Source: an uncultured bacterium | GTDB taxonomy: Bacteria > Patescibacteriota > Minisyncoccia > UBA6257 > GWB1-50-10 | Reading direction: 5' to 3' | Assembly: GCA_963713955.1 (NCBI GenBank) | Contig: OY970216.1 | Location: 732,562-796,561, forward strand | Length of the DNA stretch: 64,000 bases | Part shown: positions 12,171 to 12,464 of the stretch, piece by piece | Position numbering within the stretch: position 1 is the first letter of the stretch | How the letters are laid out: every line of letters starts with the position of its first letter | The notes under the pieces: model-generated | The model's database searches: none | What the model saw: only the letters and a program-made list of their open reading frames with translations | Told to the model about the DNA's origin: nothing | Program-made: the position numbers and the translations under genes

Positions 12171-12464
12171 ATTCCGACGAAGAGCGAGAGATTATTTATC
12201 TATTTATAAAACCAGCGCATGAGAGAAATTTTTATTTTAGTTGAAAACTTTTTTAGTTGCCCCAGTAGCCGAGACTTAAGGCTTATCGGCTAACGCCTTT
12301 CTGATACCACACTTCAATGAAGAAATGTGTCGATAAAGTTTAATTGATCCACGCACAGCTTCCGCTACGCGTGCCTTGTTACGACTTCACCCGTGTCACC
12401 GAGTTAGCTCTGATACGCGCGAAACGCACTTTAAGCTCTCCCGGCTCCCTTGGTGTGACGGGCG

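Follow-up and report, generated by a model that had tools for sequence, protein, structure and literature searches.

Absence of the anti-Shine-Dalgarno sequence from a Parcubacteria 16S rRNA gene, and promoter -10 boxes close to start codons in the surrounding genes

The 16S rRNA gene and its 3' terminus

The 64-kb stretch of DNA analysed for the current report, which we refer to as the window, carries on its minus strand a 16S rRNA gene that is recognized by the Rfam model SSU_rRNA_bacteria with a score of 1273 bits. The gene is interrupted by an intron of 866 nt that matches type 16IS9 in the available text of a survey of rRNA insertions in bacteria of the CPR (PMC11270868). Its parts, and the elements that flank it, are as follows.

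14866..14893, minus strand: 16S promoter, TTGACA-16 nt-TATACT, with 11 of 12 matches to the consensus
13331..14699, minus strand: 16S exon 1 (cmscan, 1273 bits; boundary read from the sequence)
12465..13330, minus strand: group II-like intron at 16S position ~1400, with a LAGLIDADG_1 ORF inside it at 12531-12959
12337..12464, minus strand: 16S exon 2, from E. coli position ~1400 to the 3' end (cmscan, 73 bits; junction read from the sequence)
12345..12373, minus strand: helix 45 (CACGCGUAGC-GGAA-GCUGUGCGUG) with the conserved GAUCA behind it; 45 related loci have the identical sequence
12337..12344, minus strand: 16S tail AUUAAACU in the slot of the anti-Shine-Dalgarno sequence CCUCCUUA (direct reading and Rfam SSU model)
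12107..12342, minus strand: 16S trailer, without CCUCC (duplex energy and motif search)

[quoted passage not shown] Read directly, the 16S gene of the window ends in GGAUCA-AUUAAACU, with the last eight letters at 12337-12344, as compared with the usual GGAUCA-CCUCCUUA. The covariance-model alignment places the ...GGAUcACCUCCUUu of the model over GGAUCAAUUAAACU with high posterior probability and ends at 12337, the last eight model positions (1526-1533) being aligned to AUUAAACU; exon 2 alone spans model positions 1379-1533. Helix 45 and the GAUCA that follows it are intact. No CCUCC was found by motif search in the 452 nt between the end of the 16S gene and the next start codon. The absence of a CCUCC anti-SD from the 16S 3' end, which had been claimed in a first-pass annotation of this DNA, is therefore borne out by direct reading, by the Rfam alignment and by the search of the trailer; the accompanying remark that no aaggagg occurs in the trailer carries no information as evidence. 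The trailer and the 5' leader of the gene (14713-14868) are predicted to form a duplex of -79.8 kcal/mol that begins at position +3 after GGAUCA, and a G+C-rich hairpin (12107-12146) ends the trailer upstream of the promoter of the next gene.

The loss of the anti-SD motif has already been published for Parcubacteria, of which the window is a further example. According to the available text of Tsurumaki et al. (2022, RNA 28:1041, PMC9297842), the motif was detected in only 48% of Parcubacteria, those that lack it overlap with the group that lacks uL1, and SD helices are thought not to form in them; the same text describes bS21 as often absent from Parcubacteria and bS1 as short in most CPR bacteria. 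In the window, as in that study, a 16S rRNA that is otherwise intact lacks the CCUCCU motif at its 3' terminus, and membership of the Parcubacteria is indicated by the best 16S matches, by the MAGs that share the tail and by the CPR-typical LAGLIDADG intron at position 1400. The available text of the study differs from the present analysis in treating the presence or absence of the motif, without a description of the sequence that replaces it, of the conservation of that sequence or of the organization of the genes. One constraint on the 16S tail is removed by the loss, in most CPR bacteria, of the assembly GTPase Era, which binds GAUCACCUCC (PMC10582724).

Gene starts in the window

In all, 55 genes of the window were called by a codon-usage model that had been trained on long ORFs, and were annotated with Pfam; the start of the longest ORF is an ATG in 45 of the 55. 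The start positions used here are predicted ones, since they were assigned by a neutral rule, under which a gene starts at the first ATG that is no more than 10 codons away from the longest start. SD-like 4-mers lie at -18 to -4 before 4 of 54 starts and 100 of 662 internal ATGs, and are thus unenriched at starts and, if anything, rarer there (two-sided p = 0.16); two of the four starts that bear them are wrong by Pfam alignment. The predicted pairing with a canonical anti-SD averages -2.6 kcal/mol at starts, and is weaker there than at the controls, for which the mean is -3.9 kcal/mol. The positive control for this measure was provided by non-CPR loci with CCUCC, for which pairing with their own tail amounts to -5.0 as against -3.7 kcal/mol (p = 4e-5). 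The only ribosomal protein genes in the 64 kb, those for L31, L25 and L33, have no SD before them. A GGAGG does occur 9 nt before the ATG of pyrG, and an AAGGAGG before one Minisyncoccus gene; about one occurrence of this kind would be expected at random. The small ORF 3262-3450, which had been offered as a counterexample on account of an upstream GAGGAGG, does not hold up as one: it has no family match and was not picked by the codon model, and its GAGGAGG lies in a purine-rich stretch with recurrent GGAGG-like words, which makes it poor evidence of a working SD.

SD-independent initiation, as the first-pass annotation had proposed it, follows almost directly from a 16S rRNA without CCUCC, and is supported further by the lack of SD enrichment and by the weaker pairing at starts, with a method that works on the non-CPR controls. 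As a measure of the avoidance of SD-like words inside coding regions, the ratio of internal GGAGG under synonymous-codon shuffling did not discriminate (0.92 with z = -0.9 for the window, 0.80 for non-CPR loci and 0.86 for anti-SD-less loci). The prfB frameshift site was considered as a reporter of SD use and rejected, because the release factor of the window is of the RF1 type without the N-terminal domain and is not a frameshifted RF2.

What does distinguish the starts of the window is a promoter-like hexamer. An exact TATAAT with its last letter 6-11 nt ahead of the start codon is present in 11 of 54 genes, as compared with 2 of 662 internal ATGs (Fisher p = 1.1e-11), and a match of five of the six letters with A2 and T6 kept, at a spacing of 5-12 nt, is found at 16 of 54 and 11 of 662, respectively (p = 8e-13). 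Within the last 20 nt the counts for TATAAT are 12/54 and 3/662, and this is, together with its sub-words, the only hexamer enriched before starts. A TGn extension precedes 7 of the 16 boxes (p = 2.6e-5). The 16 genes with such boxes, which we call leaderless-type, all start with ATG, and GGAG, GAGG and AGGA are absent between box and ATG in every one of them. Individual boxes are listed below together with their counterparts in two GTDB relatives, loci L240 and L197, which share synteny with the window in the region downstream of the 16S gene.

4772..4777, minus strand: TATAAT, 7 nt before the signal peptidase ATG (start 4764)
9961..9966, minus strand: TATAAT, 11 nt before the pilB ATG (start 9949); kept in L240 and L197 at 8 nt
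10741..10746, minus strand: TGcTATAAT, 8 nt before the second pilin ATG (start 10732)
11422..11427, minus strand: TGcTATAAT, 6 nt before the pilin ATG (start 11415); kept in L240 and L197 at 7 and 9 nt
11901..11906, minus strand: TGcTATAAT, 8 nt before the response regulator ATG (start 11892); position kept in L240 and L197, spacer not
20043..20048, minus strand: TATAAT, 6 nt before the fructose-bisphosphate aldolase (fba) ATG (start 20036)
23643..23648, minus strand: TGcTATAAT, with the first ATG of ORF 23144-23641 following after 1 nt and the second after 7 nt
26759..26764, minus strand: TATAAT, 8 nt before the ATG of the transketolase N-terminal subunit (start 26750)
33199..33204, minus strand: TATAAT, 7 nt before the DUF192 protein ATG (start 33191)
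39788..39793, plus strand: TATAAT, with the first PolX ATG following after 4 nt and the second after 7 nt (start 39798/39801)
46287..46292, minus strand: TATAAT, 11 nt before the ATG of ORF 44968-46275
46905..46910, minus strand: TGtTATAAT, 11 nt before the cupredoxin-like protein ATG (start 46893)
49183..49188, minus strand: TGaTATAAT, 8 nt before the ATG of ORF 48404-49174

The boxes that the first reading of this DNA had placed before the genes for signal peptidase, pilB, the pilin, the response regulator, fba, ORF 23144-23641 and PolX are all present. Its description of them as extended TGnTATAAT elements was right in that the boxes are real and above chance, and too broad in that TGn accompanies 7 of 16 and not all. 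The boxes of ORF 23144-23641 and PolX fit the second or an internal ATG; for PolX, such an internal start is favoured by the Pfam domain, whose match to the longest ORF does not begin until residue 45. A further example, RAYT (42934-42946), is weak, with only TAAAAT before the second ATG.

If transcription begins ~7 nt past the box, a spacing of 6-11 nt would correspond to a leader of 0-5 nt. The modal spacing in the window is 8-9 nt, longer than the ideal 6, and would on the same assumption give leaders of 1-3 nt; many of the box-bearing mRNAs may for this reason have leaders of 1-5 nt rather than none. At the response regulator promoters, the first purine after a pyrimidine comes at position 8, directly before the A of the ATG (position 9). 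At pilB, the box directly follows a terminator-like hairpin and T-run (9979-10000), so that hairpin, TATAAT and ATG lie within ~50 nt; packing as tight as this would leave room for a leader of ~5 nt at most. Promoters of two hexamers (-35 and -10) were not enriched over shuffles (11 found, 14.7 expected), and it is accordingly from the -10 element that promoters are called here. The near-consensus promoter of the 16S gene carries a -10 of the same type, and its TATACT indicates that the RNA polymerase of this organism reads TATAAT-like, classical sigma-70-type -10 boxes.

With curated starts, the 54 genes comprise 16 of the leaderless type (~30%), 15 that are coupled to an upstream gene (~28%) and 23 that are unclassified. 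The 15 coupled genes start at -11 to +14 nt from an upstream stop codon on the same strand, several of them with overlaps of the ATGA type (-1) or of -4; this proximity of stop and start points to termination-reinitiation as the probable way in which such genes are translated. The -10 box is mostly missing before operon-internal genes, being found at 2 of the 17 that lie no more than 25 nt from the gene upstream. Some of the unclassified genes are preceded by an A/U-rich leader, with a -10-like box at a distance of 13-36 nt. The earlier view that initiation is largely leaderless hence needs to be narrowed: leaderless-type genes are real and account for only about a third of the total, about a quarter are coupled, and none is SD-dependent. 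Elsewhere in the window, the PCMT gene starts 7 nt after a tRNA, an arrangement that recalls tRNA punctuation.

Comparison with relatives and conservation of the replacement tail

The orthologues of the response regulator, pilin and pilB genes, whose proteins are 64-84% identical, have TGnTATAAT or TATAAT at 6-11 nt from the ATG in three species, and the spacer bases and upstream flanks of the same promoters differ between the species. The kept box is the phylogenetic footprint of a functional element at that position. A histogram of -10-to-start spacings, drawn from ORFs of at least 120 codons in all fetched loci, has a sharp peak at 6 nt in every group of relatives with an anti-SD-less tail (ATTAAA, TTT, ATTC, ATTAT/ATTAC and other), which is the spacing expected if the A of the start codon were the first base to be transcribed. 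A box at 5-12 nt is found in 21-28% of the genes in the anti-SD-less groups, as compared with 3% and no peak in the non-CPR loci with CCUCC. In the CPR-like loci that keep CCUCC (those with a helix 45 beginning with CA), an SD signal is absent too, which hints that disuse of the SD might have preceded decay of the anti-SD.

Replacement of the anti-SD is widespread among the relatives of the window. A scan of metagenome contigs with the helix-45 pattern found at least 120 loci; among the matches listed, eight have a helix 45 identical to that of the window, and seven of these continue with ATTAAACT and then diverge, while one continues with CCTCCTTTCT. At least 120 GTDB species representatives have a base other than C after GGAUCA, nearly all of them assigned to Patescibacteria, Paceibacterota, Parcubacteria or Minisyncoccia; the matches listed include Liptonbacteria, Harrisonbacteria, Staskawiczbacteria, Nomurabacteria, Campbellbacteria and the cultured Minisyncoccus archaeiphilus PMX.108. 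A tail of the ATTAA type occurs in 39 of 45 loci that share the exact helix 45 of the window (at least 39 other contigs). The contigs with ATTAA tails belong to Liptonbacteria, Harrisonbacteria, Paceibacterota and Minisyncoccia MAGs, and their 16S rRNAs are 75-93% identical to that of the window where measured. The spliced 16S sequence of the window is 92.9% identical to that of L197, a Patescibacteria MAG (JAMCYI010000016.1), and 90.6% to that of L225, with 84% or less for the other loci compared. Other clades have the tails UUUAUUUU, UUUUUUUA, AUUCCAAU, AUUAUUUU and CUACAUUU, and partly decayed forms of the anti-SD are present as well (UCUCCUUU, CCUUCUUU and CUUUCUUU).

Among 37 distinct related trailers, positions +1 to +8 of the tail carry 1.5-2.0 bits, position +9 carries 0.9 and positions from +10 onwards ~0.1-0.4. 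The set was chosen by positions 1-5, and positions 6-8, which are independent of that selection, are 89-97% conserved. Because the conserved block is exactly as long as the tail of E. coli and is kept down to ~75% 16S identity, we take the mature 3' end to lie at ~12337 and the new tail to be under selection. It is most likely conserved chiefly as part of the mature rRNA. A helix between leader and trailer that serves in processing could conceivably contribute: a GUUU(G/U)A-like leader element able to pair with the tail exists in several relatives, and the helices are short and A/U-rich. Pairing with mRNA was rejected as a cause of the conservation, since duplexes of upstream regions with the genome's own tail in the anti-SD-less groups amount to ~-1.5 kcal/mol, with no consistent excess at starts. 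The new tails may have roles in the leader-trailer processing of pre-rRNA or in the binding of protein at the mRNA exit site.

A full-text literature search, with subscription journals outside its scope, found no report of leaderless architecture in Parcubacteria, CPR, Patescibacteria, Saccharibacteria or Minisyncoccus. As far as this search extends, the conserved replacement tail and the leaderless-type architecture appear to be undescribed, as an expected corollary of the published loss.

Initiation without an anti-SD sequence

We propose, with a probability of roughly 0.75, that in the organism represented by the window the anti-SD has been lost and that initiation by SD pairing has been replaced by leaderless-type starts abutting -10 boxes, by stop-start coupling and by A/U-rich leaders. 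A 30S subunit whose 16S rRNA lacks CCUCC could not dock on mRNA through SD pairing, and start codons would have to be chosen by other routes. For about one third of the genes, mostly those at the heads of transcription units, a -10 box 6-11 nt from the ATG would cause the transcript to begin at or near the AUG, and the ribosome with its initiator tRNA (fMet-tRNA) would load onto this 5'-terminal or near-terminal codon, as in leaderless initiation. Operon-internal genes, which overlap or abut an upstream stop codon (ATGA, gaps of 1-14 nt), would be started by terminating ribosomes. The other genes, with short A/U-rich leaders free of SD, would presumably use an initiation of the S1 type on unstructured leaders. 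The leaderless reading draws on the position-specific -10 boxes, their conservation in orthologues, the terminator-promoter-ATG layout at pilB and the ATG starts of all 16 genes.

The boxes might be read in two other ways. In one of these, UAUAAU is not a promoter element at all and acts at the RNA level as a new ribosome-binding site by pairing with the altered tail of the 16S rRNA. The UAAU inside it is indeed complementary to the first four bases of the tail (5'-AUUA-3'), and in the ATTAAA group pairing with the own tail is slightly better at starts (-1.51 as against -1.29 kcal/mol, p = 0.017). These energies are negligible beside the -5.0 kcal/mol of real SD pairing in the control group, and the same TATAAT-like peak at 6 nt exists where the tails are UUUAUUUU, AUUCCAAU or AUUAUUUU and unable to pair. 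The frequent TGn before the box is a feature of promoters; the box is absent before most operon-internal genes, it directly follows a terminator-like hairpin at pilB, and the 16S gene, which is not translated, has a box of the same type. The independence of box position from tail sequence and the lack of pairing between tail and leader speak for promoters, and we consider the new ribosome-binding site very improbable. It is somewhat less improbable, though still unlikely, that the promoters lie further upstream and that the A/T-rich sequence before the ATG is an unstructured, S1-dependent standby site on leadered, SD-less mRNAs like those of the Bacteroidota or cyanobacteria. Upstream regions that are A/T-rich at about -12 to -3, the 23 genes without a -10 box nearby, spacings of 8-11 nt that exceed the ideal 6 and the unenriched two-hexamer promoters would all suit such a site. 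A/T-richness, however, does not explain the enrichment of exact TATAAT at a fixed distance, nor the retention of the hexamer while the adjoining A/T-rich bases change, nor the sharp 6-nt peak in the relatives.

The proposal would also fail if an anti-SD were supplied from elsewhere, either as CCUCCUU from the 3' exon of a further intron or by a second rRNA operon, or if the 16S copy in the window were a pseudogene or an artefact of assembly. The gene already holds one intron, and the view is limited to 64 kb of the genome. The trailer of 452 nt, however, is free of CCUCC and runs into the hairpin and then into the promoter of the next gene, which leaves no room for a hidden exon. In the kilobase downstream of 132 anti-SD-less loci, CCTCC occurs at 0.29 per kb, which is rarer than random, and CCTCCTT in 6, by which a conserved downstream exon is ruled out. 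A second intron immediately after GGAUCA, the case that the first-pass annotation had named as refuting its own claim, is excluded by these scans and by the trailer. The available text of the survey of CPR rRNA insertions names 16S sites 1400 and 1498, and none at the 3' terminus (PMC11270868). The independent assembly of the tail dozens of times argues against an artefact, and the score of 1273 bits with an intact helix 45 against a pseudogene. An anti-SD from elsewhere or a defective 16S copy thus has scarcely any probability left, and promoters close to start codons, combined with stop-start coupling, are for us the preferred account of the window.

Loss of the anti-SD was long held to be very rare, and the Parcubacteria, which are among the largest bacterial groups, include many members without it. 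It is an attractive but tentative extension of our proposal, to which we would give somewhat less than an even chance, that at least 120 species-level lineages of Parcubacteria have abandoned SD pairing for a mitochondrion-like regime in which leaderless mRNAs from -10-only promoters are combined with stop-start reinitiation, and have repurposed the 16S terminus as clade-specific 8-nt tails, AUUAAACU in the present case. The window illustrates what genes may look like after such a loss, with promoters set against AUGs, chains of stop-to-start junctions and no substitute pairing motif. Gene callers that reward SD sequences will misplace starts in anti-SD-less genomes, and leaderless designs would be advisable for expression tools intended for CPR bacteria. 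Minisyncoccus archaeiphilus, as a cultured and anti-SD-less organism, makes direct testing of the idea feasible, and metatranscriptomes of such cultures are available (PMC10936435). The weight of the idea will grow if genome-wide and transcript data confirm mitochondria-like initiation across the whole radiation.

Bacteria rich in leaderless genes, such as the Actinobacteria (for example Mycobacterium) and Deinococcus-Thermus (group C of GeneMarkS-2), have a -10 element ~6-7 nt before the start; AUG starts dominate among such genes, which are without SD, and the anti-SD remains functional and is used by leadered genes. The window resembles them in the spacing of its boxes, in the lack of SD and in the use of AUG, and differs in the missing anti-SD; with that sequence gone from the 16S rRNA, every gene must be SD-independent. 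Bacteroidota keep CCUCC in their 16S rRNA, where it is occluded by ribosomal proteins, and have unenriched SD sequences and A-rich upstream regions. The starts of the window are likewise SD-poor and A-rich, with the difference that the anti-SD is not retained and unused but itself replaced. Mammalian mitochondrial mRNAs are leaderless or nearly so, and mitochondrial SSU rRNA is without an anti-SD (PMC10582724). The window stands apart from mammalian mitochondria in its sigma-70-type promoters, its operons, the common coupling of stop and start codons and the lack of dedicated mitochondrial factors.

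Shine-Dalgarno words in loci with and without the anti-SD sequence

Metagenome loci in which helix 45 of the 16S rRNA starts with 'CA' and the CCTCC tail is intact (for example, the comparison loci L004, L017, L020, L042 and L095) are presumably CPR-like. Despite their retained anti-SD, SD words are not enriched at the starts of these loci, and -10-like boxes occur near starts at raised frequency. The combination of absent SD enrichment and more frequent -10-like boxes in presumably CPR-like loci that still bear the anti-SD suggests that the disuse of SD may have come earlier than the loss of the anti-SD.

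Isolated SD-like words are to be read against a chance expectation of about one canonical-looking SD word before a start per 50-100 genes. The first-pass annotation had offered the ORF at 3262-3450 (-) as a counterexample to SD-independent initiation; the GAGGAGG that it cited does lie 4 nt before the ATG, but within a purine-rich stretch that holds several GGAGG-like words, and the candidate ORF matched no Pfam family and was passed over by the codon model trained on the long ORFs of the window. Ahead of pyrG, at 28491-28510 (-), GGAGG stands 9 nt from the ATG and falls within the terminal part of the epimerase gene upstream. Minisyncoccus archaeiphilus, in which the anti-SD is also absent, has AAGGAGG 6 nt ahead of one gene (comparison locus L136, 6906-7844).

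The 16S gene and its surroundings

The 16S (12337-14699) and 23S (1-1560) genes are unlinked in the window, the 5' end of the 23S lying 10.8 kb downstream of the 16S; the interval between them is occupied by type IV pilus genes, the gene for a signal peptidase, tRNAs, L33 and PCMT. The 16S gene has its own promoter and terminal hairpin, and is interrupted by an insertion:

14866-14893 (-), 16S promoter
12465-13330 (-), 16S insertion of 866 nt at E. coli position about 1400
12531-12959 (-), single-domain LAGLIDADG_1 endonuclease ORF within the insertion
12107-12146 (-), 16S terminal hairpin

The group II domain V match of the insertion is weak. PMC11270868 describes '16IS9' group II-like LAGLIDADG introns from CPR 16S genes, and the insertion matches this type as characterized there.

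Release factor gene and mobile elements

17661-18395 (-), RF1-type release factor with the motif PLT and a GGQ
18417-18518 (-), 33-codon ORF just upstream of the release factor gene
30922-31985 (-), IS3-type two-ORF transposase, HTH_Tnp_1 and rve
42169-42933 (-), IS200/Y1-type transposase

The release factor is without its N-terminal domain, its Pfam PCRF match beginning at profile position 96. The 33-codon ORF, with a TAGAAT box ahead of it, carries the initial residues of the release factor again, as if the 5' end of that gene had been partly duplicated. The two IS3-type ORFs have a -4 overlap, as is usual for programmed frameshifting.

tRNA and tRNA-like genes

2945-3216 (-), split tRNA-like gene, halves GCCGTTGTAGCTCAGCTGGTAGAGCAACTCC ... 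GGAGTAGGTCGCCGGTTCGAATCCGGCCAACGGCTCA
~3790-3925 (-), tRNA-like D-arm sequence GTAGCTCAGTGGTAGAG, upstream of tRNA-Thr
2450-2529 (-), tRNA-Trp / PCMT start junction

Between the halves of the split gene, the anticodon loop holds an inserted segment of about 200 nt. ARAGORN made no call there, and the Rfam tRNA and tmRNA-3' matches were sub-threshold only. The D-arm-like element, enclosed by a GGGCGGG/CCCGCCC long-range stem, was recognised by none of the tools applied. An ARAGORN call of tRNA-Arg at 3638-3719, which overlaps tRNA-Thr, is doubtful.

At the third site, TATAAT stands 9 nt ahead of the tRNA-Trp 5' end, and 7 nt separate the tRNA 3' end (2458) from the PCMT start codon (2450). Processing of the tRNA would leave the PCMT mRNA a leader about 6 nt long. 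This junction is reminiscent of mitochondrial tRNA punctuation.
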